Virus record (IMG/VR): IMGVR_UViG_3300020148_000031
From: an uncultured virus (IMG/VR IMGVR_UViG_3300020148_000031)
Taxonomy: Duplodnaviria > Heunggongvirae > Uroviricota > Caudoviricetes
Direction: 5' to 3' (one strand)
DNA length: 64,000 nt
In this document: positions 7,386-61,164 of the stretch, in pieces
Layout: each line of letters begins with the position of its first letter
Position numbering within the stretch: the stretch's first letter is position 1
Program-made: the position numbers and the translations under genes
Notes under the pieces: generated by a model
Told to the model about the DNA's origin: nothing
The model's database searches: none
The model's input: only the letters and a program-made list of their open reading frames with translations

Positions 7386-8570
7386 TTAAGCAGCAACCCT
7401 AGATTCTTTTAGGCCATCAAACCATGGCTGAACTCGAGTTTTAATATACTCATTCATTGTAACACCTGAGCCAGGAGAAACTTCATCATTTTTATTAATT
7501 CTGAAATCTCTGTATTCGTGATCATTAATAAGAACTCTCACATCAGCGAAATCTAATCCTGTACTATTTAAATAATACAGAGTTTGGGCACGATAACCAA
7601 TAGGGACTCCGTCTTTCCAATCACCAGGATTACCAGAAGTTTTAATTTCAAGGATTCCATTAATTTGCCCATCTTTTCTATCACTAATGAAACCATCCAT
7701 ATTTAAAGTTTGCCAAGGGCGATCAGGATGGGCATATTGTCTTTTACTTGTAAATACTTTATATCCGGGATGAGCTTTTGCATATTCACTTGCAATTCGT
7801 CGTTCCCAAACAGTACCTCTATATGCGGCTCCAGTTTTAAGTACACCAAAAAGATTTTGACGGCGGGCTACATCTTCCGGTGTAGGCATAGAGATTTTAG
7901 ACTTTTCGACATTATAAAAATTCTTCTTATCAAACCATGAAAGGCTTTCTTCACTTTTAAAATCCATTACTGCAATTGCACCTACATCAGAGCCGCCAAT
8001 AGAATTAAATCGTGCTTCTAGCCATTCTTTAGAATTAGATTCAAAACCAGTCACTGGTACAAGATTTCCAATATGTTCATTTTCGTCTAATTCTATAAGT
8101 GTATCATTATAGAACTTGCTATTTCCAAGTGCTTCTACTAGTTCAGCTGTTTTATTTCGATAAAGATCAAAATCTTTAGTAATTGCTCTGAAAGTTTTAG
8201 AGTCTACTTTATTAGTAGCGTCAATATTTTTAGGGTCACAATTTTCAAGTTGTAATGCTCTTTTTGATGAATACTTCATTCTTTCATCTAGAACCTTTTC
8301 AAAAGCTTGATAAATAGAAGGGTTAGAATCAACAATTTCTTCTAGTTCTGAATAACTTATTAATTCTAATTTTTCTGAAAGAATATTAATATCTAAATCT
8401 TTCTTATTTGTTACAAATAATGGAGATTCATTCTTTAAAATGTCTTCATATGCGGAGAGAGCTTCTTCCTTTGAAGAATAATGCGGTGCATTAACCCCAT
8501 ACGGACAATTCCCCCTTTTTGCTTTACAAAGCAGAGGACCCTTCTCAGGGTTAATATGAAATTTAGCCAT
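7386..8570 (-). CDS. HCCH-leader protein with YqaJ/lambda-exonuclease-like domain
   Basis: Leader FHINPEKGPLLCKAKRGNCPYG..PHY; C-terminal WLEARFNSIGGSD, G..WE, MDG, LEIKT and Q..YY motifs. Confidence 0.8.
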   Translation of the reverse strand: MAKFHINPEKGPLLCKAKRGNCPYGVNAPHYSSKEEALSAYEDILKNESPLFVTNKKDLDINILSEKLELISYSELEEIVDSNPSIYQAFEKVLDERMKYSSKRALQLENCDPKNIDATNKVDSKTFRAITKDFDLYRNKTAELVEALGNSKFYNDTLIELDENEHIGNLVPVTGFESNSKEWLEARFNSIGGSDVGAIAVMDFKSEESLSWFDKKNFYNVEKSKISMPTPEDVARRQNLFGVLKTGAAYRGTVWERRIASEYAKAHPGYKVFTSKRQYAHPDRPWQTLNMDGFISDRKDGQINGILEIKTSGNPGDWKDGVPIGYRAQTLYYLNSTGLDFADVRVLINDHEYRDFRINKNDEVSPGSGVTMNEYIKTRVQPWFDGLKESRVAA

Positions 8571-8634
8571 TTGTAAAATCCTTCTTTTTAGCGATTTTGT
8601 TTATTATTTTTCTAAAAAGAGTATTTTACTTATT

Positions 8635-9144
8635 TTATTTAATTAAATGAGAACAATATTGTTTTAAAAGACGTTCAATAAAAACAGCTTCTAAAGCTTC
8701 AGGTCCGTATTTTTCAAGCCATTCTGTTGTAAGGGAAAAAGCAAAATCAAACCAACTCTCAGGTAAAAATTCTTCTTCCCAGAAAAAACTAGAATTAAGC
8801 TTAATAAGACTTAAATCAATAAGAAATCCACTTTCTAATAAAATCATTCCAGACCCAACTTTAGGTGGTAATGCCCAACCTCTAAGAAATATCTTATCTT
8901 TTCTCTGTAGAGGTTTAAAATTAGTTTCTTTCTTTATTTCAATTTTATGAATTTTATTAAATGCATTCTTCCTAAGAATGAGAGAAGTTTTTCGGGTCAA
9001 ATTATCACATGCCGATAAATTCTCTCTAAAATAATCATCGATTGTTGTTAAATGATTCTTCTTTGGAGCGAACTCGCTGTAAAAGAATTCATCATTAATT
9101 GGATTACTACTATTTGTAATATTGTCTCTTTCTCTCTTATTCAT
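8635..9144 (-). CDS. Hypothetical protein
   Basis: 169-aa ORF with a GAGG RBS. Confidence 0.5.
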   Translation of the reverse strand: MNKRERDNITNSSNPINDEFFYSEFAPKKNHLTTIDDYFRENLSACDNLTRKTSLILRKNAFNKIHKIEIKKETNFKPLQRKDKIFLRGWALPPKVGSGMILLESGFLIDLSLIKLNSSFFWEEEFLPESWFDFAFSLTTEWLEKYGPEALEAVFIERLLKQYCSHLIK

Positions 9145-9164
9145 TATATTTCCTCTTACTTGCT

Positions 9165-9202
9165 AGGTATAGCGCAAGACAGAGGTTTCTTGCGCTATAC
9201 CT
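9165..9202. terminator. Stem-loop, probable terminator after thyX
   Basis: Perfect 15-bp inverted repeat aggtatagcgcaaga / tcttgcgctatacct. Confidence 0.65.
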
Positions 9203-9222
9203 TTATTAAATAATTTAATACT

Positions 9223-10305
9223 TTATCTTGGAACATCCTCAAAATTAAGAAGTCGTCTTAATTGACCCCAATCAGAGTTAAAGTTACCAGAAACTCCATC
9301 AGGAACATTTAAGAAATTAGTTTTAACATCATAATTCTTTAAAGAAATAGCAATATGCTCAAATGGGCTCAAATGCTTCATCTTCAAAAGACGATAACCT
9401 AACGCAGTTGTAGCAGTGCTTTTCTCGGCTTTTGATTTATCTTTATATGAAATTTGAGCGCATTCTGTAGCTGAAAGCATAAGAAGATCCTTTAATTCTT
9501 CAAAAGAAGCAGTTGAAGAAGGAATTAATTCGTCATCTATAAATGGAAGGTGAATCCAACTTACTGATGCTTCAGAAACTTCGAGAGCTTTCTTAACTAA
9601 GAAACTTATAGCTTGAATTTCGGGTTGTGCAGAACCTTCAGTTCTTAACTCTAAGAAGTTTTTCCAGAAGTTTGAAGTAACAAGAACTTCATGCCACATA
9701 TATGGTTCAAGAATTCTATTGACATTTTGTTTGTGAATTGATGAAGTTCCTTCTTTTAATTCTCCAGTGTTGTCATATACTTTATCATAATAAAGATCAA
9801 CCCATTTTTCCCATTCGGAAGCTATAGTTTTGTGATCAGCATATTTTTTATCAAAAAGTTCTCCTAAAAGAAGTGAAAGAGTATGAACAACTGCACTATC
9901 TCTAGCTTCTAGCCAATTAGAAATAGCTGCTTCTCGCCCTTCAGAAGTAACATATTCTCCTGACATTCCTTTTTGATTAACAGTAAAAAGGGGAATGTAA
10001 GGATTAGTCATTACATCTTCAATAGTGACACGAATTGAACGCGCTCGAGAAGATGCTGAATTGCGACTGAAGACACGATGCGTATTAAATTCAGGGAGAA
10101 TCACTCTTGGGAACCTTAAGATTAAACTTGTTAATCGAGAATCTTCAGAGCAACCCTGAGCTACAGTATCTGCTATAACAATAGCTTGGTAAGAGTCAAG
10201 AATTGGATCAGTATATGAAAGCTTTTTGTAAGCTTTCTTACGATAAGGAAGATTCACATCTTCAACAAGAATCGTAGTAAAATCAGGTTTTAAAGGTTCA
10301 GACAC
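9223..10305 (-). CDS. thyX: Flavin-dependent thymidylate synthase (phage-type)
   Basis: EFNTHRVFSRNSASSRA, HKQNVNRILEP, AQPEI and HLSPFEH motifs. Confidence 0.85.
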   Translation of the reverse strand: MSEPLKPDFTTILVEDVNLPYRKKAYKKLSYTDPILDSYQAIVIADTVAQGCSEDSRLTSLILRFPRVILPEFNTHRVFSRNSASSRARSIRVTIEDVMTNPYIPLFTVNQKGMSGEYVTSEGREAAISNWLEARDSAVVHTLSLLLGELFDKKYADHKTIASEWEKWVDLYYDKVYDNTGELKEGTSSIHKQNVNRILEPYMWHEVLVTSNFWKNFLELRTEGSAQPEIQAISFLVKKALEVSEASVSWIHLPFIDDELIPSSTASFEELKDLLMLSATECAQISYKDKSKAEKSTATTALGYRLLKMKHLSPFEHIAISLKNYDVKTNFLNVPDGVSGNFNSDWGQLRRLLNFEDVPR

Positions 10306-17264: not shown

Positions 17265-18479
17265 CTATCCTAAAAGTTTAAATAATTTCCCTACAAGAGA
17301 TCCGCTTTTTTCTTCAGCATCTCTATCATAAAGTTCGTTATCTATTTCTCTTTTATTATTTTTCTCGGATTTGATTCTTTCTTCGTGTTCTTTGAAGACT
17401 TTTTGAGTTTCAGAAATAAAATTGAAAGCAAATTCACTTTTTTCTTTTACTAATTCTGGAGTTTGCGAAAGCATGACATTTTGGGTAAAGTTTTTTACAA
17501 TATCTCGCGCTTGTTCAGGGCTAGAAATAACAGTTTTCTTCCTTGGTTCATCGCGGGTGTTTGTCATAATGCTGTATTCTCCATCTTCAACATTAATCGA
17601 CCACCAATTTGATGAAACCCCCGCTTCGCTATCCCAAAGTCTTATTTTTGTTTCTGGTTTTTCTGGGTAATATGGAGACAATCTTAAGCGTTCTTTAATA
17701 TGTTTTGGCCTGAAAGTAGAGTCATAATTTTGATTCACAATAATCTTTTGATCTTCATTTTTGAAGAATGAAAGACCCATTTCTTTTACTTTTTTAGCTG
17801 AATGGTTTTCATTTTCAACGGAATGTATAGTCGAAATGATTTTATCGCTCATATATTCTTGATTAAATTGTGTATTCTTCTCATCTGGGAACATTTTAGA
17901 AGCACCTAATCGAGCAAATTCATGAATTTTTAATTCCATTACTCTTCTATCGTGTTCATTTCTAAGTCTGAATTTTAATTCTTGCTCTGGCTTGTATTTA
18001 TCAGAAGGGTGAGATAATGTAACAGTCCATACCGGAATAACTTCTAAAGCAGCGTCAGACGTTTCAAAACTTCTTGCAAGTTTCATTGTAACGGCTTTTG
18101 ATGGATCAAGACCTAATGATTTTGGAGATAAGAAACTAAAATCCCTTGAGTAATTAACAAAAGTTAATTCACCTACAGAATTTTCTTTATTTTCAATTTC
18201 TTTAACAAGATGTCTATTTGCTACAACATCCCCTCTTTCAGCTCTTACTTTAAGTGAAGTTGTATTAAAAGGATCAAGGAATTTTTCTTTTTGTGCAAAA
18301 TAATCATCTTTTAATTTTTTATTATGAAAAGCAATATAATCTTGCCTAAAAGTTCCTTCGCTCTTTGTAGAAAAGTGGTCTGATTCTGCATATGGACATT
18401 TCCCAGTTCTAGCCTTACATGGTTTAGGTCCAGATTCAGTGATATGAAATTTTTGAGACATTGAATACATACACTCCAA
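17265..18479 (-). CDS. HCCH-leader protein, unknown cargo (likely start 18461 or 18470)
   Basis: KFHITESGPKPCKARTGKCPYAESDHF leader. Confidence 0.75.
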   Translation of the reverse strand: MECMYSMSQKFHITESGPKPCKARTGKCPYAESDHFSTKSEGTFRQDYIAFHNKKLKDDYFAQKEKFLDPFNTTSLKVRAERGDVVANRHLVKEIENKENSVGELTFVNYSRDFSFLSPKSLGLDPSKAVTMKLARSFETSDAALEVIPVWTVTLSHPSDKYKPEQELKFRLRNEHDRRVMELKIHEFARLGASKMFPDEKNTQFNQEYMSDKIISTIHSVENENHSAKKVKEMGLSFFKNEDQKIIVNQNYDSTFRPKHIKERLRLSPYYPEKPETKIRLWDSEAGVSSNWWSINVEDGEYSIMTNTRDEPRKKTVISSPEQARDIVKNFTQNVMLSQTPELVKEKSEFAFNFISETQKVFKEHEERIKSEKNNKREIDNELYDRDAEEKSGSLVGKLFKLLG

Positions 18480-22275: not shown

Positions 22276-23478
22276 ATGAAATTTCATATTAATCCTAGAA
22301 CAGGTAACCCTTCAGCCTGTAAAGCTAATAAAGGAAATTGTCCGTTTGGCGGCGCTGATGAACATTTTAGTGATAAGAATCTCGCTCAGAAATATTTCGA
22401 GAATGTGCTCAAATTAGAGTATGAGGAAGACATAAAAAGAGTAATGGAATCTCATTTAGAGGACTCGCCTCTTTTAGAAGACTATCCAAATATTTTTACA
22501 TATAGTCTTTTTGCGATGGAAAAATATAACAATAATAATTGGACTGAAAGAGAGCGTGAAGATCTTGCGAGAGTCTTTGTTATCGAGGATATGATTTCTA
22601 AGAAAGATGTTAGAGGTGCTGAAGAGATTCTTAGTCAATTTGGAATTGAAGAAACTAATGAAGACTGGCAAAAAAGAACAAGAAGTGAGAATCTTTATGA
22701 AATCGGTGAAAAAATAATACAATCTTATTATAATTCTCTTATAGTAGATAAAGCAGTTAACCCTCGACAGCCCATTAAAGGTTTAAGTAACTTACGAAAA
22801 TCGCAATTAGAGATTCTTCGTGAACTTAATGAATTTTCCGATGGAACATATATGTTCCATAAAGATATAGAACGATATTTTGATCTTACTCTTAATAAAT
22901 TGTCAGATAACAGAGTTTTTGAGCCTTATACTAAAAGAGATAAATCTGAAATCACCCGACCTAAAGATCTTTTATTACGCGCTCTTTCAAATAAAGAATC
23001 TGAAAATTTTTATAATCCTCTTTATTTAGCTTTAGGGTTCCCTGAAAAAGAACTTAAAGCCTCTTTTGATAAATATAATGTTGAGAATGTAAACGTTTCT
23101 TATTTTAAGAATGGTAGAGAGAACGGGCTTGTTTATACAGTTCGAGAACCAAATGGGAATACCCGATCTTTTAGTGTTTATGAGCATAGAAATAGTGACT
23201 CTATCATTATTAATGGGAAAACTAATTGGGACGGTGAGAGTCTCCCTTACGCTGAGGATTCTAAAAATGCTTTCTTTGCAGAGTTTAGATTTGATGATCA
23301 TGAGCAAGTTGCTGATGCTCTCATATTCTATTTGAAGAATGCTCAATCCGGAGAATTACAAGATGACGAATATCTCGTTTCTAATGCTCAAAAGCTAGAT
23401 TGGAAAGCAATCCTTTCAGAGCAACTACCAGGATTTAAAGACTGGATTGAAAAGTATGAAGATAAAAAGAAAGAATAA
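22276..23478 (+). CDS. HCCH-leader protein, unknown cargo
   Basis: MKFHINPRTGNPSACKANKGNCPFGGADEHF; AAGGAG RBS before ATG 22276. Confidence 0.8.
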   Translation: MKFHINPRTGNPSACKANKGNCPFGGADEHFSDKNLAQKYFENVLKLEYEEDIKRVMESHLEDSPLLEDYPNIFTYSLFAMEKYNNNNWTEREREDLARVFVIEDMISKKDVRGAEEILSQFGIEETNEDWQKRTRSENLYEIGEKIIQSYYNSLIVDKAVNPRQPIKGLSNLRKSQLEILRELNEFSDGTYMFHKDIERYFDLTLNKLSDNRVFEPYTKRDKSEITRPKDLLLRALSNKESENFYNPLYLALGFPEKELKASFDKYNVENVNVSYFKNGRENGLVYTVREPNGNTRSFSVYEHRNSDSIIINGKTNWDGESLPYAEDSKNAFFAEFRFDDHEQVADALIFYLKNAQSGELQDDEYLVSNAQKLDWKAILSEQLPGFKDWIEKYEDKKKE

Positions 23479-27103: not shown

Positions 27104-27299
27104 AATATCCTTCTAAGTTTAATCGTATAATCAACAGATTTCCCAGAATTTTTACCCCAAGAATAAGAAATATCTTTTAAAATCTCTGTAACTTCATATT
27201 TTCCTTTTGGTAGCAATAATTCCATCTCTCGTTATGGACAAGGTTTGTCTTGGCTTTACATTGAGAGTAATTTCCTGTTTTTGGATTGATATAATATAT
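27100..27299 (-). pseudogene. Degraded HCCH-leader gene joined to an ADP-ribosyltransferase-like C-terminal fragment
   Basis: Hand translation: YYINPKTGNYSQCKAK, frameshift, then KPCP*-REMELLLPKGKYEVTEI...TIKLRRIF*. Confidence 0.6.
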
Positions 27300-28624: not shown

Positions 28625-28633
28625 TTTTTCTCC

Positions 28634-29290: not shown

Positions 29291-29569
29291 TTATCTGGTG
29301 ATTGGAACTACACGTTCACGACCGAAAGAGAGAGTGGTAAGTTTAGGGCCAATAGGGTATTGCCTACGCTTCCACTCTGCTACATTAACTTTACGAACTA
29401 TTGAATCAGCAATATCTCCATAAGTCTTTCGAAGAGTCTCAACTTCTGCCCGGCCTTCAATATGATCTTTCAACAGAGAGTCAAGAACTTCATATTTTGG
29501 AAGCGACTCTTGATCAACAGCTTTACACACAGAAAGCTCCCCTCTTTTAGTCATATGATATGTAAACAT
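29291..29569 (-). CDS. Protein with truncated HCCH leader (possible pseudogene)
   Basis: TYHMTKRGELSVCKA, then lacks the CP..H half; strong GGAGG RBS. Confidence 0.5.
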   Translation of the reverse strand: MFTYHMTKRGELSVCKAVDQESLPKYEVLDSLLKDHIEGRAEVETLRKTYGDIADSIVRKVNVAEWKRRQYPIGPKLTTLSFGRERVVPITR

Positions 29570-30706: not shown

Positions 30707-30719
30707 GAAAACTAGCGCT

Positions 30720-44758: not shown

Positions 44759-45343
44759 CTAAAATAATAATTTAGAGTTGTCTCTTATAAAAGTCTCACT
44801 CAAAAAAGATGTAATTCTTTTCTTTACCTTATCTAATGAACTATCAAAAACTTGATGCGTTTTAAATCCATATTGATTAAATTCTGCTTCGTTTATCTCT
44901 GAAATAAAAATATTTTCATCAGTATTATAACCCTTCCAGTCCTCATAAAACTTTTCTTGTGACCAAATACCTTTAACGTCCAGTATTCTTCCATCTTCTA
45001 GAAGAATTCCTACATGATGCCCAATTTTATAAGATTGACCCTCCCTATTAATTCCTTTATAGTAGACAGCTATCATAGGTCTTTTGAATTCTTTGGATAA
45101 AGATAAAGCGAGAACATCACAATCTCCTCGGCTGAAGTCATTTATCTCTTTCTCGTCTATAAAAAAGAAATCAACATTATCTTTTTTTATTAAACTAGTG
45201 TAAAACAAATCAACTTTTTTTAATAATTCATGCCTATCAGACGAATGAATACTTTCGCCTCCAAATGGGCAATTATCTTCTTTTGCAAAACATTGACCTA
45301 ATGCAGATGTTTTGGGATTAAAATGAAACTTTTTATAAGTCAT
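44759..45343 (-). CDS. HCCH-leader protein with possible papain/transglutaminase-like domain
   Basis: KFHFNPKTSALGQCFAKEDNCPFGGESIH leader; GDCDVLAL...HHVGI...ILDVKG gives Cys-His-Asp order. Confidence 0.6.
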   Translation of the reverse strand: MTYKKFHFNPKTSALGQCFAKEDNCPFGGESIHSSDRHELLKKVDLFYTSLIKKDNVDFFFIDEKEINDFSRGDCDVLALSLSKEFKRPMIAVYYKGINREGQSYKIGHHVGILLEDGRILDVKGIWSQEKFYEDWKGYNTDENIFISEINEAEFNQYGFKTHQVFDSSLDKVKKRITSFLSETFIRDNSKLLF

Positions 45344-49005: not shown

Positions 49006-49944
49006 CTAACCACTAATAATTCTTGTAAGATTCTGCTTAGCGTATGCTAATTGATCTTTAACTGAATTAATTTTATCTTTTTCTAAACCTAAATCAAGTC
49101 TGTCAAGACCATCAACAAAGAAGTTGATAAGAGGTAAATATTTTGCAGCTTGTCTTCTAATTCTAGTTTCATTTTCGGGAGTAATCTTCATATGATGTAA
49201 CCCAGCAGCATTATCAATGAAATCACTAAGTTTAGTCAAGAATGGCTTTGGGGAGTCTTTAAGATTCTTAGTAACATGATCAAAATAAATCTTTCGTTTT
49301 TGCTCTGGAGTAAGTTCTGTAGAAACAGAAATAGGGATATGTTCATTAGTGACCGCCATTACGATTGAAAGAACTTCGCTTCCATATGTATTTTTAATGT
49401 ATCTCTTTAAGAGTTCTCTTGATTGATTCTCATCTAAATTATTCTTAGTAGAGTATTTAGCAAAGCGTTGAGATCCATCTTCAACAGTATCATGAAGTAT
49501 CGTTGCAATGATAGTGTTTTGATCTTTTACTCCAAGACGAATAAGTCTTAATGCGTTTCGTAATGGGTGCTCAATATAAGGAGTCTTATCATACTTGTCT
49601 CTACCTAATCTTGTTTGATGTGCATGGAGAAGACTCGCAAGTTCCATAGCGGAGTCAATCGTTTCAAGGTCAAAGTTTAGCTTTTTTGCTTCATGTCTTA
49701 AAGTTTGACTTAATTGAGCACTATCGAGTTCTTTAAGAGGAACTCGAGACATTACAGTCGCTGAAAAATCTATTTTAGGGGTAGTGATAAGGGTAGTAAA
49801 TAACTCTGCACTCATATAAGACTCGTAAGTCTTCATGGCTTCCTCTTTAGTTTCACCATGAATAAATGGACAATTTTTAATTTTCGCTTTACAAATTCCA
49901 TATTCACCAGTTCTTGGATTGATATGATAAAGAGTTTTGCTCAT
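49006..49944 (-). CDS. HCCH-leader protein with HD domain (Mesh1/SpoT-hydrolase-like)
   Basis: Leader YHINPRTGEYGICKAKIKNCPFIHG; AS..HAHQTR, PYIEHP, LHDTVED and KLSDFIDN motifs. Confidence 0.85.
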   Translation of the reverse strand: MSKTLYHINPRTGEYGICKAKIKNCPFIHGETKEEAMKTYESYMSAELFTTLITTPKIDFSATVMSRVPLKELDSAQLSQTLRHEAKKLNFDLETIDSAMELASLLHAHQTRLGRDKYDKTPYIEHPLRNALRLIRLGVKDQNTIIATILHDTVEDGSQRFAKYSTKNNLDENQSRELLKRYIKNTYGSEVLSIVMAVTNEHIPISVSTELTPEQKRKIYFDHVTKNLKDSPKPFLTKLSDFIDNAAGLHHMKITPENETRIRRQAAKYLPLINFFVDGLDRLDLGLEKDKINSVKDQLAYAKQNLTRIISG

Positions 49945-52352: not shown

Positions 52353-54149
52353 TTATTTTTTGAAAACTTTTACTTTCTTTAATATCTCTTGTAATTCTTC
52401 ACCATCGAGGGTTTCTGATGAAAGTAAAGAATCCTTAAGAAGTTCTAAAACCTTATTATTTTCTCGAAGAATAGTGATCGCTTTTTGAAGAGCATCGCTT
52501 ATAAGGGTCTCGACTTCAGAATATACTTTTTCTGAAACGTTCGTTCCAAGCTCGAGAGCTTTCTTGTCGAGATAGTATAATTGAGATCCCATTCCGTAAT
52601 ATGTAATAGCTTCTATTGCAAGAGACGTTGCAGCCTTTATATCTCCACCCGCTCCTTGAGTGAACCCATCTTTACCGTATTTAATAATTTCTGCGGCACG
52701 ACCACCCATACTCGCAGCTAATTGCGCTTGGAATTCATTTTTAGTAAAGTAATTATTTTCGCTATTATCAAAACGTGTGTGACCTCCAGATTGACCACGT
52801 GGAATGATAGTGACGTATGATGGTTTCATGGCAGACTCAATCGCTTGAGCAACGATAGCGTGGCCTGCTTCATGATAAGCGGTAACTGATTTATCATAAT
52901 CAGTCATGACGGCTGACTTCCGCTCTTTACCAACATGAAGAGTCACTGCAGATTCAATAAGATCTCTTTCTTCAACAATTTCAGCATTTCTTTTTGTTGC
53001 AATAAGACAGGCCTCATCGACTATGAGAGATAATTGAGCTCCACTGAATCCAATAGTTTGCTTTGATACTCTATCCCAGTTAATATCTTGGCTGAAGGGA
53101 CGGTTTTTAGAGTGAATTTTTAGAATTTCAGCGCGCCCTTTACTATCAGGAAGAGGGACATTGACTACTTTGTGAAGCCTTCTTGATAGAGCTGGGTCGA
53201 GTGATTCTGGAAGGTTAGTGGCACCAATAACAATAATGTCATTCTTTTCAAATCCATCAATTTCTGTAAGAAGAGTAGTAAGAGTAGAGTCCATTTCTCT
53301 AGTTACAGCGTCAGCGCGCCCTTGATTTCTTTGTCTACCGATAGCGTCAATTTCATCAATAAAAATAACGGCTTTCCCTGATTTCTTTGCTTTTTTAAAG
53401 AGCTCTCGAACTCTCTTTGGTCCGACTCCAGCAAACATCTCAACGAAGTCAGCTCCAGTTGTTTGGAAGAATGGAACATTAGCTTCTCCCGCAATAGCTC
53501 TAGCAAGAAGTGTTTTACCTGTTCCTGGAGGTCCAACTAAAAGAACCCCACTCGGCGGTTTAGCTGTTAAACGCTTGTAAGGTTCTGGGTTCTGAAGGTA
53601 ATCAACAATTTCTTTCATATCTTCAACAGCTTCATCAACACCAGCAACATCTTTAAGTCTTGTTTTTGGGCGTTCAAGAACAGTTTGTTCTTTCTTAAGG
53701 TTACCGAGCCCGCCCATGATGAATAGAAGGAAAACAACAATAATGATTACTGGAGCAATTGCTAGTATAAGATTGGAAATGAAACTAGGAGTCTCTATTG
53801 GGTTAATTTTTGTTTTAACATCAGAATTCTCAAGAGTATCAATAAGTTTTTCTTCATAACCTTTAATGTAAACACTCGAGTATTCTTTACCGTCAACATC
53901 CTTAAAAGAGAGTGTGTACGAACTTTGATCAATAGTTACTTCTTCTACTTTATCAGAAGTGATGATTTCTATTGCTTCAGTATAATCGACTTTTTCTATT
54001 TCTGGAGCGGTAAACCTCATCACAAGGAGAGTAGAAATAGCGATTAAACCTACTATTAATATGAGAGAAAGTCTTTTATTTCTGTTTGTTTTTAAATCTT
54101 TAAAGAATTTGCCGAAGGCTTTTTTGAAAGAATTCAATGGAATAACCAT
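52353..54149 (-). CDS. ftsH: ATP-dependent zinc metalloprotease FtsH
   Basis: Two TM segments, [18 protein letters not shown] and HEAGH motifs. Confidence 0.95.
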
Positions 54150-54195: not shown

Positions 54196-55167
54196 TTATT
54201 TACCTTCTTTTATCCTTCTTCTCATCGCATAGTGTACGTCTCGATCAACCTCCACTTTAAGAGCATTCTTAACATCAATTAGAGGTGTATTGGGATTTCC
54301 TGCCGCTCTGAAACGAATTCTTGCATCGTTAGACTTTAATAATATTTTTAAATCTTCAGGTTTAGCATTCTCATTATAAGCATAGCCCATTTTGTTTTCG
54401 CTTGAGCCGCTAGTCATAATCCACTTTTTATTTTTATCAGTGAGATTAGGGTTTTCACCAGCGGCAAGAGGTATAGGAGAGGAACTATGATTAAGTAAAG
54501 AAAATTGTTGTGAATCATTTGTCACTACTTTAGCTAGTTCGTAATGGGCACTGTGTGATTTTTCAGACTTTAAAATATCATCAATCTGATTTTTTAAAAG
54601 ATTGTTCCCAATATGAAGAACAATGAGATGGTTCATTTTTGGATCTTGAGAATCTATAATAGAATCTAACACTCGATTTCCCTCTAAAGCTTTAATTAGA
54701 ATAGCTTTTTCTTTAAGGTCAGAATGAAGCACGGAAGCGATTTGCCCAATTGACATTCCATCTGGATTCTTTAATTGTTTTTCAAAATTCTCTTGATTAA
54801 TAAGTTGAGGGAGAGTTTCGCTCATGTATTCTTTGAATTCTTTATGTTTTATCAAAGCAGAATAATATTCACTAGAACGAGAGACAGTATCTGTTCTGTT
54901 AGCTAAACTAGCAAACTGTTTCGAAGTAAGTGATCCATTTCTAAGGGGGAACAAAGGGTCTCCTCCAAAGCGATCTAGATCAAGATTGTTGTCAACAATT
55001 GATTTGAACGTATCAGAGTAATCATTTTCTAGTTTTTTAGAGTTTTTAAAATTAGCTTCTTCTAAAGAAACAGCGTCGATGTGTTGTTCTTCAGAAGCAA
55101 AAGGACATTTTCCTTTAACTGCTTTACATTTACTTACGACCCCGTTATTGTCAACATGAAATTTCAT
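54196..55167 (-). CDS. HCCH-leader protein with LRV/helical repeats
   Basis: MKFHVDNNGVVSKCKAVKGKCPFASEEQH leader; AGENPNL, AYNENAK and AAGNPNTP repeats. Confidence 0.8.
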   Translation of the reverse strand: MKFHVDNNGVVSKCKAVKGKCPFASEEQHIDAVSLEEANFKNSKKLENDYSDTFKSIVDNNLDLDRFGGDPLFPLRNGSLTSKQFASLANRTDTVSRSSEYYSALIKHKEFKEYMSETLPQLINQENFEKQLKNPDGMSIGQIASVLHSDLKEKAILIKALEGNRVLDSIIDSQDPKMNHLIVLHIGNNLLKNQIDDILKSEKSHSAHYELAKVVTNDSQQFSLLNHSSSPIPLAAGENPNLTDKNKKWIMTSGSSENKMGYAYNENAKPEDLKILLKSNDARIRFRAAGNPNTPLIDVKNALKVEVDRDVHYAMRRRIKEGK

Positions 55168-55280: not shown

Positions 55281-56425
55281 CTAAGAATATGGAGCATTAT
55301 TAAGTTTTAGTTGATCTATTTCATAATAGAGCTCTAAATAATTTTTCTTTATGGAGAAATATTTTCCCATTGATTGATTCCAAGGGTTTCTCATGGAAGA
55401 CATAATCGGAGCTGGTAAATCTTTCATTTTTTCAAATTCTATTTTGTCTTTAGAGCTCATTTTATAATTAAAAGGTTTTTGTACTGTTATTGAAAGTTTA
55501 GACTCAAGTTCAGAATTTCTTTCTTCTTTCTCGCGAAGACTGTTTAATATATCTTGAGAATTAAGATTGTTTAAATATGGATAATACTCTTTTATATCTT
55601 TAATTGTTATATTTTTATTCTCTAAAAAATGATGTGTTGCTAGAGGTGAGAGTGTTCCAGATTTTAAATTTTCTATCTCTGTATTAATAAGACTTAAGGC
55701 TGTCAATCTGTCAGAATAGCTCACTAATTGCCCTTTAGAAAAAATACTTTTCTTTATGTAGTTGCTAGTGTTTCTCTCGTTACATTTTGTTAAGAATACT
55801 TTATGAAATTCATTAGTGACTGAGTTGAAATCTCTATTAAGAGAGTAATCATAAATAAGCGCAGGAGCTTTATTTAACACTTCCCTTGCTATCTCTTCAG
55901 TTGTAAGAGGATGCAGGGCTAGAGAGTGAAGAGAATAATGTGAGTCCGAATCCTTTTCCATATGATAGAAATGATTAAAGAATTCTTGGTCATTAATTTT
56001 TGCAAATAATTCTGGTATATCTTGTTTTTTAATCTTAGTAAAGATTGGTATCGCATTTCTAAAGGAAGTTCTATATCTTTAGAAAATTCGAAGAATAGTT
56101 TCCCTTCTATTGTATAAGGAGTTTCGGGGAAAGAGCTTTGAGTAATCTTCAAAAACTCCTGAACATAAAGTTCTTTCGGATTGAGATTATTATAAATGTA
56201 TTCAATATACAATTCAGAGTATTTTCCCTCTTCAATAAGGGATCTATGAAACGAATCCTTGCTAAAGCTAGATATCTCTGAATGAAAATCTTTCATTATT
56301 TTCTCATAAGCAGTTTGTGCTTCTTCTTTCGAATGATAGTGATTTTCAATCCCTCCGAAGGGACATGGTCCTTTGCTTGCTTTGCAGGGTGCTATAACAC
56401 CCGAGCTATTGACATGATATGGCAC
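55281..56425 (-). pseudogene. HCCH-leader gene split by a -1 frameshift (ORFs 55919-56425 and 55281-55961); paralogue of 57213-58484
   Basis: Leader YHVNSSGVIAPCKASKGPCPFGGIENHY; in-frame A AAA AAC at 56024-56030; the downstream frame aligns with the 57213 protein. Confidence 0.7.
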
Positions 56426-56542: not shown

Positions 56543-57151
56543 ATGCCTAAGTATCATTTAAATAAATATGGAGAACCAGCCCGTTGTGAAGCTGTAAAAA
56601 TAGCGTGTCCATTAGGTGGAGCAGATGCCCATTTTGATGGAGATTTTAAAGACTCTATTGTTTGGGCCGAAAAAAAGAATGCGGAAAATCTAGCATTAAA
56701 AACTGTTCCGCAAGCAATAACTAATGACTCTATACAACATTCTGACTCTTGGTATGAGGATAAAGAAAGGATACAAGACGCATTGAAGATATTTCAACAC
56801 AATATGAAAACATCTAAAATTAAAAAGCCAGAAAAACATTATTCAACTAATGCTGGTAAACTTAATATTACTAATTATGATGGTTCTGGTGCAAACTATA
56901 TCACTCCAGGTGAGGATAGTTTTGTTGTTCTTACTTACCCTGACGGAAAAGGAGCCCGCGTAATTTCAAGCTATGGAGAGTTTTATCAAGACCCACAGTC
57001 CGCTATAGGAAAATACGTTGTCCAATACAAACAATATTCTGGAAACAATGACGTGCAAAAAGATTTAGTGGTTGTTGGGTACATGTCGCGGGACGGGAAA
57101 AGATATGGATATATTCCTAATCGTCAAGTTGCTTTCTTTGTTTATAAGTAA
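56543..57151 (+). CDS. HCCH-leader protein, unknown cargo
   Basis: MPKYHLNKYGEPARCEAVKIACPLGGADAHF leader. Confidence 0.8.
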   Translation: MPKYHLNKYGEPARCEAVKIACPLGGADAHFDGDFKDSIVWAEKKNAENLALKTVPQAITNDSIQHSDSWYEDKERIQDALKIFQHNMKTSKIKKPEKHYSTNAGKLNITNYDGSGANYITPGEDSFVVLTYPDGKGARVISSYGEFYQDPQSAIGKYVVQYKQYSGNNDVQKDLVVVGYMSRDGKRYGYIPNRQVAFFVYK

Positions 57152-57212: not shown

Positions 57213-58484
57213 TTATATACTCAAGGCCTTTTGAATCAAAAGACTATCTCTATATTTCCTGCTTAGATCTAAAACAAGACTTATTTGATTTCTTCCAATA
57301 TCTCCATTATAGTTCTCTAAAGATTCAGTCATTTCTTTAGTAGAATATTTCTTACCTGTAAGATATGACCATCTATTATTAAAATCATAAGGGTTTTCAG
57401 GGGTTCTTTGTTTCATCAACCTGTTATATTCTTGTTCTTCTTTTTCAGTGAGACCTTCAGTTTCATAAGGTGTAGGAATTCTTGGATTCAAAATAGTCTT
57501 TACTTTTTGAGGGACTGCTTTATCATTTTTTAATTTGTTGTATAAAACACCTTTAGAGTGCACTTGGATTCTTTCTTTGTTCTCTTTTAAATCAGAATAT
57601 GTCATGTTTTCGTTAACGACTAAATTAGTTGAATCTTCATATTCCCATAATCTATCATCTCTCGTATTCTTCTTTACAAGATTTAATGCGAAATCTTTAT
57701 CTGAGTAGCGAATAGAAATATGTCTAATTTCTCTAATAGAATTATTACTAACAAGAGGACTTATAGATTGAGGATCTTCCGTGTATCGTTTCATAAATCT
57801 AGTGCTGTATTCCTTTAATAATTCTTTATTTTTACCTGGATTTGCCCATTCATATTCTTCAATTAGAGAAGGGTCATTATCGAGTATTTGTCGAGTGATT
57901 TTTTCGGGAGTAGAGCTATTTTCTAATAAAACTTTTTCTAATGAACGATATTGATGGTATTTATCGTAAATTCTCTCAATAGCATCTTCACTTTTTATAT
58001 ATTGAGCAACACTCAAAAGATTAGTTAATTCGAGGTTTTTGATAATTTCATCTTTAACTTTCCCAGAAATATCGTCTCTTTCAAGTAAATATTCCTGTGC
58101 GTCAATTTGTGAATATCTAGCTTCAGAAAAGGAGTCTTTATTTACTGGAGCTGTCACAATTGCAAACATTTCATCTATTTCTTCAGAAGTAAAGTTTCTC
58201 AAATATACAGAAAGACCAGAATCACCATTATCTTCTTTTTCCCATTGTGAGGCTAAATTATCTTTTAATGCTTGATGTTCTCTTAACGCTTGATGCTCTC
58301 TTTCAGCATTATCTTTATTGATTTTTTCAAAGATTCTTTTTTCGGGTCGCATTTGGACTTCATATGCTAATCTAGCGTCATGTTCGTCCTCATAATGATC
58401 ATCGGCACCCCCGAAAGGGCAATGGCCTTTAGTGGCTGAACATTTACCTGGTTCGCCTTTAGCATTAATATGATAAATTGCCAT
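57213..58484 (-). CDS. HCCH-leader protein, helical cargo
   Basis: MAIYHINAKGEPGKCSATKGHCPFGGADDHY leader. Confidence 0.8.
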   Translation of the reverse strand: MAIYHINAKGEPGKCSATKGHCPFGGADDHYEDEHDARLAYEVQMRPEKRIFEKINKDNAEREHQALREHQALKDNLASQWEKEDNGDSGLSVYLRNFTSEEIDEMFAIVTAPVNKDSFSEARYSQIDAQEYLLERDDISGKVKDEIIKNLELTNLLSVAQYIKSEDAIERIYDKYHQYRSLEKVLLENSSTPEKITRQILDNDPSLIEEYEWANPGKNKELLKEYSTRFMKRYTEDPQSISPLVSNNSIREIRHISIRYSDKDFALNLVKKNTRDDRLWEYEDSTNLVVNENMTYSDLKENKERIQVHSKGVLYNKLKNDKAVPQKVKTILNPRIPTPYETEGLTEKEEQEYNRLMKQRTPENPYDFNNRWSYLTGKKYSTKEMTESLENYNGDIGRNQISLVLDLSRKYRDSLLIQKALSI

Positions 58485-59043
58485 AATTTTATCCTTTAAT
58501 TTTTATTTTGAAATTTAAAAATCACCTAGAAGCGTCCATTCTGGTTCATCATCTTCTGGTTCATTTCTCACTACTAAACACACGAAAGATTTGTTAACCT
58601 CTTCCTGGTCGATTACTTCTACAAGTTTAGAATCTTTATTTATATCGTATAGAGTCTTAGCTGAGAAAACCTCTCCAGAATATACATCAGAAATTTCTTT
58701 TATGTCAGGATCGAAATCAACACTAGTTGGTATTTTCGAGTCTTCTGAAATTGACCACATTTCCGGATTTTCTTGATCATCTGGGTACGCAACTATAACA
58801 TTAAAAGGTGTTTCTCTCTTAGGAAAATATAAAATTGCATATTCATCTGTTTTTATGACTGGTTGATATTTTTTAGAAGATCCAGTCCATTGATCGTAAA
58901 TTCTTATTGAAGTTGGCTTAGGAAAAGTTTCTTGTGAAGATTCAAAGGCAATAGCTGCTTCTTGAAAAGTATTAAAATGTTTCTCTGGACCCCCGAAAGG
59001 GCAATTACCTTTAGTGGCTGAACATTTACCTGGTTCGCCTTTA
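58407..59043. repeat. 55-bp near-identical direct repeat (58407-58461 and 58989-59043) encoding the leader core
   Basis: acccccgaaagggcaat[gg/ta]cctttagtggctgaacatttacctggttcgccttta; 53 of 55 bases identical. Confidence 0.9.
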
Positions 59044-59069
59044 TCGTTGATATGAAATTTTGTCATCAT
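58515..59069 (-). CDS. HCCH-leader protein; cargo paralogous to 60670-61164
   Basis: KFHINDKGEPGKCSATKGNCPFGGPEKHF leader; QPVI, IPTS.DF and LVEV.DQ shared with the 60670 protein. Confidence 0.8.
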   Translation of the reverse strand: MMTKFHINDKGEPGKCSATKGNCPFGGPEKHFNTFQEAAIAFESSQETFPKPTSIRIYDQWTGSSKKYQPVIKTDEYAILYFPKRETPFNVIVAYPDDQENPEMWSISEDSKIPTSVDFDPDIKEISDVYSGEVFSAKTLYDINKDSKLVEVIDQEEVNKSFVCLVVRNEPEDDEPEWTLLGDF

Positions 59070-59889: not shown

Positions 59890-59979
59890 CTATCTGTTTT
59901 TACTAACATGTGAATATGCTTGTTGCGCGCGCCAAATTCCCTCATTTCCAGTTTTAGTGTTAACGTGATAAGAGTTCAT
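59890..59979 (-). pseudogene. Degraded HCCH-leader remnant
   Basis: MNSYHVNTKTGNEGIWRAQQAYSHVSKNR*: both Cys replaced (W, Y), stop after 29 aa. Confidence 0.55.
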
Positions 59980-60027
59980 AATTGCCCATCTTATAAAATA
60001 AATATATATTTTTTCTAATGAAAAATA

Positions 60028-60249
60028 TTATTTTAAAAGAACAATAGTAGCTTCTGTAGCCTCAATAGCCTTCCATTGTTTTCCGAAAAGATAAACAGTA
60101 TCACCTAAAGAAAAATTTGACTGCATATCAAGTTTATCTTGTCTTTCTAAAAGTAAAAACTTGTTTTCCGGTCTTTTAAAGACTGTTGCTCTTTTCTCGT
60201 TTTCTGTCACTGTTTCGTTGAAATTTAATACTAAAGTATTCACAATCAT
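60028..60249 (-). CDS. Hypothetical protein
   Basis: 73-aa ORF with an AAGG RBS. Confidence 0.4.
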   Translation of the reverse strand: MIVNTLVLNFNETVTENEKRATVFKRPENKFLLLERQDKLDMQSNFSLGDTVYLFGKQWKAIEATEATIVLLK

Positions 60250-60310
60250 CCTTCTTTTATTTTTTGCATGTACTTATCTAAATAGGCTTTTATGTAATGC
60301 TATTACATTT

Positions 60311-60686
60311 CTATTTATTCTTTAAAAGTAAATCTTCTAATTTTTCTTTTGCTACTCTTGAAGAAAACGGAGCTTCAGAAAAAGATAAATATTCTAAGTC
60401 TTCTTTAGAGCAAAGAGGATTATTTACAAAACCGTCAGAATAATCACGATTGTAAGGGTTTTTAATAGAGCGTCTGATAATTGATGATGATTCCTCATCT
60501 AAAATCTCATTGCTGGCAATACAACTTTTTACTACTAAAGATTTATGATAAAGTAAAGAAGACATTATTTCCGTTTCTTTAGTAAATTCATCAATTTTAG
60601 AAAGATAAGATTCTTCTCCCGAAAGGGCGCGCTTTATATTTTGCTGAACATTTAGAGATATTACCCTCTTTATTCATTTGAAACAA
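60311..60686 (-). pseudogene. Degraded HCCH-leader gene with LRV-like C-terminal fragment
   Basis: 60565-60686 translates (L)FQMNKEGNISKCSAKYKARPFG, then shifts frame; 60311-60565 encodes IASNE and FVNNPLCSKEDLEYL repeats. Confidence 0.55.
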
Positions 60687-61164
60687 ACCACCTTTGGTTA
60701 TTTAATCTAGCAAAAAGAATCATTGAGAAACCCTCATTGTCTTGGTCTTTTACTTCTATCAGTCTTAACCCCTTATCAATTTGTTTGATGAGAGAAGAAG
60801 AATACACTGTTTCTGAAACAGTGTCAATAGAAATGAAATCTTCCGAAAACTCATCGCTCGTAGGGATCCTTATTGAGTCTATTTTCTCGTAGAAATCATC
60901 AAAATCATTCTTTCTTACAAGAGAATATTTTGAACCATTTAAAAGTACAGAATAATTCTTACTCGATAATACTGGTTGCGTAGTAATAAAATCTTGAGAT
61001 GTTTTTACCTTTATAGATGGGTAAAGTCTCGATTTTTGTGATTTTTCATAGAACGCTCGCGCTTCTTCTTTTGAAGAGAAATGGTTTTCTATAGAGTCAA
61101 AAGGACATTGTATTTTTGCATGACATTTATTAATCTCACCGGTCTCAAAATTTATATGAAACAT
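60670..61164 (-). CDS. HCCH-leader protein; cargo paralogous to 58515-59069
   Basis: MFHINFETGEINKCHAKIQCPFDSIENHFSSKEEARAFYE leader. Confidence 0.8.
   Translation of the reverse strand: MFHINFETGEINKCHAKIQCPFDSIENHFSSKEEARAFYEKSQKSRLYPSIKVKTSQDFITTQPVLSSKNYSVLLNGSKYSLVRKNDFDDFYEKIDSIRIPTSDEFSEDFISIDTVSETVYSSSLIKQIDKGLRLIEVKDQDNEGFSMILFARLNNQRWFVSNE

Follow-up and report, generated by a model that had tools for sequence, protein, structure and literature searches.

In the dockerin-cohesin system, a small metal-binding module docks dozens of enzymes of one genome on a common partner; dockerins are extracellular calcium-binding modules, usually placed at the C-terminus. DNA ligase III and PARP1 carry N-terminal zinc fingers that act as break sensors. 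In phages, the T4 capsid targeting sequences and the propeptides of ejection proteins in the giant phages SPN3US and phiKZ are portable N-terminal signals common to unrelated proteins within a single phage. As described in part of PMC5694885, these signals are peptides of 10–20 residues or propeptides of 20–127 residues, and the SPN3US protease cleaves at an A-x-E motif. MuF-fused effectors and polyvalent proteins, according to a passage of Iyer et al. (2017, PMC5512222), join a constant N-terminal domain to varied enzymatic domains, including 2H and nucleotidyltransferase (NTase) domains, and are predicted to be delivered with DNA. Finally, a section of Iyer et al. (2021, PMC7824862) reports a lineage-specific zinc-ribbon expansion of ~35 copies in the giant Bacillus phage G and there reads this module as a transcription factor or DNA-binding protein, not as an enzyme tag.

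Here we describe a different module, designated HCCH, that opens 18 genes in a 64,000-nt stretch of viral DNA, hereafter the window. The window lies in a 436,884-bp contig (~437-kb genome) that carries phage-type genes, including rIIA/rIIB, DnaG primase, ThyX, an NrdG-like gene, NAD salvage and RNA repair. Because rIIA/rIIB, DnaG, ThyX and the NrdG-like gene are present, the window belongs to a huge bacteriophage and not to a conjugative element. The 18 leaders served to train an HMM, which was run over the six frames of the whole window. The scan yielded exactly 18 full copies (49.7–72.6 bits; E 6e-15 to 8e-22), four on the plus strand and 14 on the minus strand, and no copy outside 7386–61164 (Table 1). 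A sharp score gap separated them from everything else in the window (≤19.9 bits). The motif opens each of the 18 translations, with an onset 1–6 residues past the likeliest start codon in every copy; starts were corrected to ATG at 18461 (the gene at 17265), 22276, 45343 and 55167. In the leader alignment, H3, C13, A15, C20, P21 and H28 are invariant, and the leaders are 23–49% identical to the first copy. The invariant Ala and Pro are each encoded by all four synonymous codons; therefore, conservation acts at the protein level. By contrast with the leaders, the bodies were similar in only 1 of 153 pairs.

These data bear out the first-pass annotation, which had described 18 such leaders, always N-terminal, on both strands and followed by largely non-homologous bodies. 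It had also placed decayed copies at 27100, 29291, 59890 and 60565. The HMM scan did find four (5.2–19.9 bits), near these positions but not exactly on them; the candidate at 60565 is the N-terminus of ORF 60311–60565, in which just Y-H...C-x-A was recognized by eye.

Table 1. Module genes, decayed module copies and other genes of the window discussed in the text.
Feature	Coordinates	Strand	Module (bits)	Body and remarks	Upstream motif
Module gene 1	7386..8570	−	63.7	YqaJ/RecE-like exonuclease, 394 aa; PF09588 YqaJ, E 1.4e-14, residues 182–339; phrog_434 RecE-like exonuclease	TTTAGAAAA, 46 nt upstream of ATG
Module gene 2	17265..18461	−	49.7	350-aa body, no Pfam, PHROG or NCBIfam match; ATG at 18461	TTTAGAAAA, 82 nt upstream
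Module gene 3	22276..23478	+	72.3	No known function; C-terminal part matches phrog_6319 and phrog_11149 (both function-unknown families)	TTTAGATAA, 35 nt upstream
Module gene 4	25442..26230	−	64.5	No Pfam or PHROG family match; 262 aa	GTTAGAAAT, 40 nt upstream
Module gene 5	29705..30706	+	71.2	Probably helical-repeat body (by eye only); 333 aa	TTTAGATAA, 36 nt upstream
Module gene 6	33023..33832	+	70.8	RNA ligase, PF09414, E 1.4e-27; 269 aa	
Module gene 7	35100..35516	−	62.9	89-aa family-less body	GTTAGATAA, 47 nt upstream
Module gene 8	35906..36529	−	52.3	2H phosphoesterase, PF22547 2H-SAK, E 1.1e-17; start adjoins stop of PNKP gene	None of its own
Module gene 9	38511..39299	−	66.6	Nucleotidyltransferase-like, phrog_388, E 4.6e-6	TTTAGAAAA, 35 nt upstream
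Module gene 10	43440..44750	−	52.6	Longer loop before last His; family-less body, Cys-rich and coiled-coil-like by eye; 436 aa	
Module gene 11	44759..45343	−	54.9	Family-less; 194 aa from ATG 45343	
Module gene 12	49006..49944	−	53.4	Short loop; HD phosphohydrolase, PF13328 HD_4, E 6.5e-7; TIGR00691 spoT_relA region, E 9.9e-12, far under family cutoff	TTTAGAAAG, 36 nt upstream
Module gene 13	54196..55167	−	56.1	Family-less; 323 aa	TATAGATAA, 34 nt upstream
Module gene 14	55919..56425	−	70.9	Family-less; 168 aa, GTG start	TTTAGATAA, 36 nt upstream
Module gene 15	56543..57151	+	57.1	Family-less; 202 aa	TTTAGATAA, 36 nt upstream
Module gene 16	57213..58484	−	71.4	Family-less; 423 aa; no tblastn match in GenBank phages	
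Module gene 17	58515..59069	−	72.6	Family-less; 184 aa; sole body with a paralogue (gene 18, E 4.5e-5)	TTTAGAAAA, 23 nt upstream
Module gene 18	60670..61164	−	62.8	Family-less; 164 aa	
Decayed copy	27246..27296	−	15.3	HMM positions 2–17 (first half); intergenic	TATAGAAAA at 27320, 24 nt upstream
Decayed copy	29513..29563	−	13.1	N-terminus of ORF 29291–29569; remainder resembles C-terminal end of NAD synthetase (phrog_36784, residues 18–91 vs profile 514–589 of 594)	
Decayed copy	59932..59970	−	5.2	E ~1, weak; first β-hairpin only; SYHVNTKTGNEG by eye	
Decayed copy	60615..60677	−	19.9	E 3.2e-5; just upstream of ORF 60311–60565; ARPFG, second Cys substituted	
PNKP	36529..37671			Untagged	
FtsH homologue	52353..54149				
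Partial ATPase	1..1326			Weak FtsK/HerA/TrwB-type P-loop matches; best PDB match IcmO/DotL, E 0.0064, P-loop region only	

The module had no match in Pfam, NCBIfam, PHROGs or the PDB. A metagenomic protein search at E ≤ 1e-3 matched 4,838 representative clusters, of which 1,050 remained at E ≤ 1e-10; judged from these matches, the module appears to open thousands of genes across related, uncultivated huge phages. It is not mostly internal elsewhere: in 259 of the 263 proteins fetched, it starts no more than 10 residues from the N-terminus. In two fetched proteins the module is C-terminal, and two-module proteins, P0122 and P0125, have modules joined by a coiled-coil-like spacer. Free-standing modules are rare (one short protein, in a search of 24–77 aa, versus 267 longer ones). 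The bodies of 240 fetched proteins form 135 clusters, and they diverge whereas the module is strongly conserved across phages of 30–60% GC.

According to AlphaFold models of 95 leaders (pLDDT 80.3), strands span residues 2–4 and 10–12 and a helix spans residues 32–44. A full-length model had the same leader fold, followed by a linker with pLDDT <50 at residues 52–58 and then a confident body. The predicted domain comprises ~44 residues that would fold autonomously into a β-hairpin, a Cys-Pro-Phe-Gly-Gly loop and one helix. A single zinc ion is most likely coordinated by the four invariant residues His, Cys, Cys and His. The module has a median pI of 6.05, with charges of ~+1.6 in the N-terminal half and ~−2.7 in the C-terminal half; that it is not basic argues against direct, non-specific binding of nucleic acid. 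In sitting N-terminally on enzymes of nucleic-acid ends, the putative zinc module may be likened to the fingers of DNA ligase III and PARP1, but it is near-neutral to acidic, and no sequence or fold match with those fingers was found. Phage G likewise has a small zinc module repeated many times within one giant genome, but that genome contained no match to the HCCH profile.

The module genes also share an upstream sequence, the compact element GTTAGAnA, located ~33 nt before the ATG. In the window, TTAGA[TA]A occurred within 90 nt upstream of 13 of the 18 module genes versus 5 of 48 others (p 2e-6). In 20 related loci of 46–60% GC, TTAGA[AGT]A preceded 35 of 64 module genes versus 8 of 172 other ORFs (p 8e-17), and at least four of those eight carry degenerate or C-terminal modules. 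The distance from element to ATG peaks at 32–36 nt, with a Shine-Dalgarno site in between. TTTAGAWAA sites were in mild excess in the window (17 versus 10.2 ± 3.1 expected); the signal is the placement of the sites, not their number. Neighbouring genes have σ70-like extended −10 boxes instead. These patterns suggest that GTTAGAnA is a promoter-like element marking a regulon of module genes. The late promoters of SPO1, given in part of PMC3601020 as CGTTAGA(N17-19)GATATT and read with gp34/gp33, have the heptamer (C)GTTAGA in common with it. However, the module-gene element lacks a second box at fixed spacing, and the Shine-Dalgarno site 8–25 nt after it puts the element at the −10 place rather than at −35.

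Comparison of homologues indicates that the module is optional and was probably gained or lost on orthologous enzymes. For the RNA ligase of module gene 6, the module is missing from 118 of the 120 best homologues, and the module-less homologues include some on huge contigs whose other proteins carry it; two ligase homologues have a different small Cys/His knuckle in the same N-terminal place. The PNKP is untagged in the window but tagged in a related phage (L024:6130-7344), and the 2H phosphoesterase is tagged in the window but untagged in L024. Thus, the first-pass statement that housekeeping genes lack the module held in the window but not for the PNKP of L024. In PHROG profiles from cultured phages, the alignment begins only past the module.

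Recognizable bodies in the window are the YqaJ exonuclease, RNA ligase, 2H, HD and NTase enzymes. Those elsewhere are an SF2 helicase, CCA/polyA NTase, Rnl1, YqaJ + RNase T, PNKP, zeta/AAA_33 kinase, GmrSD_C and a Topo-type Zn ribbon. By family assignment, every body in this annotatable minority appears to be a polynucleotide end-processing or repair enzyme. Any argument from these enzymes rests on a minority, since no known family could be assigned to 13 of the 18 window bodies or to 140 of 150 fetched bodies (the other 10 matched Pfam at E ≤ 1e-5). Several family-less bodies look helical-repeat by eye.

The first-pass interpretation, a tag routing many different proteins to one machine for delivery into a new host cell, is partly supported. 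The findings are consistent with a tag directing many proteins to a single partner, because the module is portable, N-terminal, attached to unrelated bodies, almost never alone, gained and lost, and accompanied by a shared element. We tentatively propose, with somewhat less than even confidence, that the module is a portable docking tag by which co-regulated phage proteins are held to a single common macromolecular partner, most likely at a site of nucleic-acid transactions. A flexible linker would join the tag to mutually unrelated bodies. The tag would contribute nothing to catalysis, as orthologous enzymes work without it, and the module genes would form a regulon under the single GTTAGAnA element. 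In the infected cell, the partner would be polynucleotide ends that are broken or processed or, with greater probability, a protein hub attached to such ends; a nucleic-acid-linked partner is favoured because of the apparent activities of all recognizable bodies. Against docking to a substrate or hub, such a domain does not predict the near-exclusive N-terminal placement.

That placement is also the one of the T4 capsid targeting sequences and giant-phage propeptides, and the prohead is, beside a nucleic-acid-linked hub, a candidate receptor. The module may dock proteins into the assembling prohead for ejection with the DNA into the next host, a reading that we consider doubtful but worth weighing. 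A prohead protease might then remove the tag, and GTTAGAnA would be a late-type single-element promoter timing synthesis to head assembly; its dissimilarity to the neighbours' boxes suggests a separate temporal class. A tag that is almost never alone and is optional on orthologues is as expected of a sorting signal, and giant phages package dozens of proteins, as described in parts of PMC7411985 and PMC13282480. A-x-E, the SPN3US cleavage motif, closes the module helix in 55 of 95 copies, and a Glu-ending motif that follows the signal in many copies is a further point in common with the T4 and giant-phage signals. However, A-x-E is present in only 5 of the 18 window copies, and helix packing would account for it just as well. 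The T4 and giant-phage signals also lack conserved metal ligands (PMC5694885), whereas the module is a folded 44-residue His/Cys domain conserved across many phages; no capsid-targeting signal is known to be a folded zinc domain. Around module genes, the window, seven related loci and an 89-kb viral contig (G001) showed no structural gene. The patchy tagging of pathway partners, with the 2H enzyme and ligase but not PNKP tagged in the window and the reverse for PNKP and 2H in L024, would be odd for an entry kit, and the two C-terminal modules also argue against sorting. The logic of a constant N-terminal domain with diverse bodies is that of MuF-fused effectors and polyvalent proteins (PMC5512222). 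Nevertheless, the window proteins gave no match to a MuF, portal or zincin peptidase domain, each tagged protein has one small tag and one body rather than a multi-domain chain, and the neighbours of module genes are replication and repair genes rather than head genes.

Self-assembly is improbable. In this case, modules would bind each other or a dedicated phage scaffold to form a multi-enzyme body, much as dockerins, to which the HCCH module may be compared as a small metal-binding module on many enzymes. P0122 and P0125 would then be bivalent linkers, and conservation of the module over diverging bodies would be expected. However, no candidate scaffold gene, cohesin-like partner or, in the window, repeat protein with cohesin-like copies was found, and the module matched no dockerin family at E ≤ 10.

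Still another role, which we regard as very improbable, is control of protein lifetime or activity, through recognition by a phage AAA+ protease or as a zinc/redox switch. Placement at the N-terminus would be apt for a degradation signal, and proteases are at hand: the FtsH homologue in the window, ClpP in related locus L031 and a Lon-like protease in G001. This evidence is purely circumstantial, as such proteases are common in huge phages with or without the module and have no specific link to module genes.

Finally, the conjugative route of the first-pass annotation, in which a VirD4-like coupling protein would be the binding partner of the module, is scarcely credible: the supposed VirD4-like ATPase has weak matches confined to the P-loop region (Table 1), the HerA-like ATPase adjoining module genes in related locus L006 is not its orthologue, the context is that of a phage, no T4SS family (VirB/Tra, relaxase or pilus) was found among 50 other ORFs of the window, the module has no match in the 72,556 plasmids of PLSDB and the known signals of this type for coupling proteins lie at the C-terminus.

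Overall, 18 otherwise unrelated genes that have one domain and a mostly shared upstream signal in common point to an undescribed protein tag.

An HMM of the leaders, run on the six-frame translation of the window, gave 18 copies of the His-Cys-Cys-His module at 49.7-72.6 bits; everything else scored ≤19.9 bits. All 18 ORFs to which the first-pass annotation had assigned the leader motif were confirmed, and their alignment has invariant H3, C13, A15, C20, P21 and H28. The four decayed copies reported with them were recovered in substance: the next four HMM hits are truncated or mutated matches that lie close to, not exactly at, the proposed positions (see table). The anatomy was also as described, with the module starting 1-6 residues past the likeliest start codon in 18/18 window copies, both strands in use (4 copies on +, 14 on −) and non-homologous bodies, of which 1 in 153 pairs had detectable similarity. 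All four synonymous codons occur at the invariant Ala and Pro, so conservation acts on the protein and not on the DNA.

Features of the window and of two related metagenome loci (L006, L009); boxes marked "by eye" were assigned by inspection
Feature	Coordinates	Strand	Remark
Partial ATPase	1-1326		PADLOC family mad8, E 8.1e-10
Extended -10 box, TGnTAtAAT	upstream of 3406-5250		by eye
rIIB	10504-11919		
rIIA	11938-14460		
RNA-repair toolkit, dispersed	20018-20482, 27365-27730, 33023-38511, 45433-46209		RNA ligase, PNKP-2H operon, EEP nuclease coupled to tagged NTase, Thg1-like enzyme, cREC, NADAR
SMC/AAA_15-type ATPase	20479-22209		best PADLOC family mad3, E 1.6e-28
Decayed module	27246-27296	-	HMM hit
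NAD salvage	27854-32480, 40224-43454		Nudix/NrtR-like, isochorismatase-type nicotinamidase, NAPRTase, NAD synthase, cytidylyltransferase-like (NMNAT-type) protein
Extended -10 box, TGnTAtAAT	upstream of 28634-29224		by eye
ORF with decayed module	29291-29569		92 aa; stretch like last 75 residues of NAD synthetase (phrog_36784)
Decayed module	29513-29563	-	HMM hit
Extended -10 box, TGnTAtAAT	upstream of 31170-32480		by eye
2H body	35906-36529		PF22547 2H-SAK
PNKP-2H operon junction	36529		start and stop meet
FtsH homologue	52353-54149		full-length, membrane-side domain; unusual in phage; TGnTAtAAT box upstream by eye
Extended -10 box, TGnTAtAAT	upstream of 59097-59717		by eye
Decayed module	59932-59970	-	HMM hit
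Decayed module	60615-60677	-	HMM hit
RCC1-repeat protein	61198-63642		814 aa, seven RCC1 repeats + SUKH-3-like stretch; unusual in phage; TGnTAtAAT box upstream by eye
C-terminal module gene	L006:1370-2323		upstream word retained
Array of small module genes	L009:573-6227		up to eight genes

The 92-aa ORF that joins a decayed module to a NAD synthetase-like stretch could be what is left of a NadE that formerly carried the tag.

In searches of reference libraries, the leaders matched no characterised domain. The Pfam-A search at E≤10 returned just three rows, all below threshold (E 0.017-0.021); neither NCBIfam nor PHROGs had a match across the module, and a PDB profile search returned 0 hits at E≤10. 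Predicted alone (AlphaFold, 95 leaders), the leader has a pLDDT of 80.3, with a hairpin at 2-4/10-12 and a helix at 32-44. Foldseek found no hit for this fold at E≤0.001, and the best score of the leader in the ESM Atlas, 0.80, was below the meaningful level. An exhaustive VIA-align comparison placed it nearest to Kunitz-type domains (best Z 3.6, rmsd 5.9 over 52 residues); this likeness is probably just the common hairpin-plus-helix arrangement. The H-x-N and later His of the module resemble the catalytic His-Asn-His pattern of HNH, or beta-beta-alpha-metal, nucleases only superficially. No HNH family appeared in the Pfam search at E≤10, and the two invariant Cys would suit a structural metal site better than that pattern. 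Among the SAK RNA repair proteins, the likeness is confined to one body, the 2H protein of the table; the module itself is in no SAK model. We found no description of the module in the literature, but the SAK-defining paper (Burroughs and Aravind 2016) may contain one. The zinc passages of the jumbo-phage and polyvalent-protein surveys from the Aravind laboratory do not mention it.

With a cutoff of E≤1e-3 the profile matches 4,838 cluster representatives (clustering at 50% identity), and with E≤1e-10 it matches 1,050; the hit list includes at least one high-ranking false positive, the cysteine-repeat protein P0121. Beyond the window the module is not mostly internal. It lies ≤10 residues from the N-terminus in 259 of 263 fetched metagenomic module proteins; in two it begins at residues 11-30, and in two others (P0173 and P0195) it is C-terminal. 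Four of the 263 have two copies, and the proteins P0122 and P0125 are approximately two modules flanking a coiled-coil-like spacer, with little else. The module hardly ever stands alone, the 24-77 aa size class giving 1 hit and the longer class 267.

The module was not detected in 50,697 GenBank phage records, including by tblastn of the protein encoded at 57213. A module protein searched by tblastn against 72,556 plasmids returned rows at chance level only (E≥0.3). The zinc-ribbon expansion of Bacillus phage G was dropped as an instance of the module, phage G having no match. Scanning with a degenerate pattern picked out a single IMG/VR locus, a single 1.5-kb contig in a set of 185,579 reference genomes, and 32 loci among metagenome contigs. 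Most of the metagenome loci are multi-copy, three derive from one 727-kb contig, and their G+C content ranges from 30% to 60%. In a BFVD fold search with the full-length model, the top eleven rows were eleven different proteins of one uncultivated virus, five of them short alignments (52-70 columns, 26-48% identity). These rows fit a module common to many proteins of that virus; the output does not give match positions within the proteins. Overall, the module is an unrecorded domain family, thousands of members strong and confined to uncultivated huge phages, "undescribed" here excepting the SAK-defining paper of 2016.

Small module genes (~160-190 aa) form tandem arrays in L009 (eight copies in 6.3 kb) and in two further metagenome loci, L013 and L003. 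The array genes share a longer conserved leader after GTTAGATATT, with TTCGA...TTCGA and CTTAAGGA, and the arrays look like recent tandem duplication.

The window belongs to a huge phage, because it encodes rIIA and rIIB, a DnaG primase, nucleotide genes (ThyX, an NrdG-like activase and a dNMP kinase), a full NAD salvage set and RNA-repair genes (PNKP, a Thg1-like enzyme, cREC and NADAR), and the contig on which its proteins are recorded is 436,884 bp long. Glutaredoxin, FtsH and an RCC1-repeat protein are also encoded. The G+C content of the window is 28-41%, and three runs labelled ant metagenome contain its DNA. A megablast search of 20 kb of the window against GenBank phages gave no match, and queries of IMG/VR with rIIA and single proteins found no relatives. 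The NAD salvage set is in line with a 2024 paper whose subject is NAD-encoding gut jumbo phages (PMC11662467). The mad3- and mad8-matching proteins are defence-like ATPases within a phage.

The module has a similar context elsewhere. Seven related loci and G001, an 89-kb viral contig, carry huge-phage replication, nucleotide and RNA-repair genes, such as those for Pol III alpha, clamp loader, RNR, aminoacyl-tRNA synthetases, IF3, ClpP, a rIIA-like protein, DnaB, UvsX and SSB. CheckV rates G001, the IMG/VR record to which locus L001 belongs, 31% complete. Five of its six module genes are packed into the last 13 kb, and its replication genes are interspersed with many HNH or homing-endonuclease genes.

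Module genes are further distinguished by an upstream element. In the window, TTTAGA(T/A)AA lies 34-36 nt ahead of the ATG in many of them, and TTAGA[TA]A occurs ≤90 nt upstream of 13/18 module genes versus 5/48 other genes (Fisher p 2e-6). The word itself is mildly over-represented (17 sites versus 10.2 ± 3.1 expected); the signal is the placement of the sites, not their number. In related loci of 46-60% G+C, where such a word is rare by chance, it mostly reads GTTAGA(A/G/T)A upstream of module genes. Across 20 non-redundant loci, each of at least 5 kb, it precedes 35/64 module genes versus 8/172 other ORFs (p 8e-17), and at least four of the eight other ORFs that have it encode degenerate or C-terminal modules.

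The element is present in 54 of the 92 module genes that have enough upstream sequence, and its distance to the ATG peaks at 32-36 nt. Because a Shine-Dalgarno site lies between element and ATG and no second conserved box follows the element (information ≤0.36 bit at +7 to +42, counts not thinned by padding), it appears to sit like a single -10-type promoter element. PMC3601020 gives the late promoters of phage SPO1 as CGTTAGA(N17-19)GATATT, with CGTTAGA as the -35 box. The heptamer of the element is identical to that box but the arrangement differs: a GATATT-like second box is missing 17-19 nt downstream, and the SPO1-type late-promoter arrangement was dropped. Untagged window genes often carry, by eye, sigma-70-like extended -10 boxes in place of the word (see table), which suggests two promoter classes interleaved in one region. 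The decayed module at 27246-27296 retains the word 24 nt upstream, and fits the birth and death of whole promoter-plus-tag genes. When the whole 89 kb of G001 was annotated for structural genes behind the element, replication and repair genes only were found; the window and the seven related loci likewise showed no structural genes.

The bodies are diverse. Modelled at full length, protein P0008 from the largest body cluster shows the module folded as it is alone, then linker residues 52-58 with pLDDT <50 and a confident body; Foldseek of this model against the PDB gave nothing at E≤0.001. The 240 fetched bodies form 135 clusters. A Pfam family was absent from 140 of 150 fetched bodies and any PHROG match was limited to 8 of the 150, with 0 structural PHROGs; PHROG profiles, which derive from cultured phages, align solely downstream of the module. 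Unlike MuF-fused or polyvalent phage effectors, the 18 window and 150 fetched proteins have no MuF, portal or zincin peptidase domain, and in PADLOC no module protein matched a defence-system family. The recognisable bodies are YqaJ exonuclease, RNA ligase, 2H, HD and NTase in the window, and SF2 helicase, CCA/polyA polymerase, Rnl1, YqaJ+RNase T, PNKP, zeta/AAA_33-type kinase, GmrSD_C and a topoisomerase-type zinc ribbon elsewhere. By sequence, all of these are polynucleotide enzymes.

Tagging is optional. Of the 120 best-matching homologues of the RNA ligase in the window, just two bear the module, one of them being the window protein itself. The remainder are mostly 210-229 aa long and 56-68% identical over the ligase body, and some module-free homologues are on huge contigs bearing the module on other proteins. 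PNKP lacks the tag in the window and has it in the related locus L024, while 2H is tagged in the window and untagged in L024. Two ligase homologues, P0289 and P0293, carry another small N-terminal Cys/His knuckle, VLQxDGxYCYTxNCxxHTPxQH, at the place of the module; this knuckle was found neither in the window nor in any fetched locus.

The reading first proposed, a portable zinc tag by which many different proteins reach a single partner, suits this anatomy of an optional, co-regulated, tethered N-terminal domain best. We rate the module as a kind of shared targeting or adaptor domain, the domain family and its shared upstream element being new. It would be a docking tag on a co-regulated gene set, because a small constant domain is tethered nearly always at the same end, hardly ever stands alone, is gained and lost on self-sufficient enzymes and has its own regulatory word. 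The four invariant ligands and a CPFGG knuckle would hold one structural zinc. Small N-terminal zinc modules on polynucleotide-end enzymes usually serve in docking at nucleic-acid sites. Since the recognisable bodies also act on polynucleotide ends, the favoured receptor would lie where nucleic-acid transactions take place in the infected cell. It would more probably be a protein hub than bare nucleic acid, since the module is close to neutral (median pI 6.05).

The main rival, the capsid branch of the first-pass annotation, is that the tag sorts proteins into the prohead; we consider it unlikely. Like a T4-type capsid targeting sequence or an ejection-protein propeptide, the module is an N-terminal signal on unrelated proteins. 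Its near-exclusive placement at that end (259/263 fetched, 18/18 window copies), the apparently separate promoter class of its genes and its restriction to huge phages all fit sorting, for which PMC5694885 describes precedents in T4 and giant phages. However, pathway partners are tagged patchily, and the cleavage signal is weak. Known prohead proteases cut after Glu in A-x-E, S/A/G-x-E or L/I-x-E; A-x-E stands at the end of the module helix in 55/95 copies, but in 5/18 window copies, and was dropped as a sign of processing. Moreover, we know of no folded metal domain that serves as a prohead-sorting signal, which counts against this rival.

Lesser rivals are that the tag drives self-assembly or proteolytic control. 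Type IV secretion, the conjugation branch of the original proposal, fails and is effectively excluded by context, the phage setting being clear, with no VirB/Tra or relaxase family among the 50 other window ORFs and a partial ATPase at the window's start that is a generic FtsK/HerA-type P-loop protein (best solved relative IcmO/DotL, E 0.0064). A HerA-like ATPase as recurrent partner of the module was also dropped, the ATPases of the window and of L006 being unrelated.

The finding is real and more general than a sequence-only reading could see, the domain being tied to a conserved cis-element. Of the protein domain families that reference libraries still lack, it is one of the larger. Since it went undetected in cultured phages, in plasmids and in all but one scanned reference genome, it is a marker for an entire lineage of huge phages without cultivated members. 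Such genes can already be annotated with the HMM and the GTTAGAnA word, which also serve to recognise fragments of the lineage in metagenomes. Were the partner identified, a tag of 44 residues able to direct any protein to a given site, possibly the capsid, would be of direct use in phage engineering.

A doubtful prospect is that protein sorting in the huge phages of this lineage has a system of its own, in which a zinc-folded tag and a single-element promoter load a changeable kit into the prohead, to enter the next host with the DNA as a pre-made counter-defence set. If so, the kit would comprise RNA-repair, nuclease and binding proteins from dozens of co-switched genes per genome, and the phage would re-stock it just by tagging and untagging genes, since orthologues gain and lose the tag. 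Together, one tag and one promoter-like word define at least 18 genes within 54 kb as a set, and this rule of genome organisation can be tested. It gives a way into the many unknown genes that huge phages carry: the tagged proteins should meet at one place.
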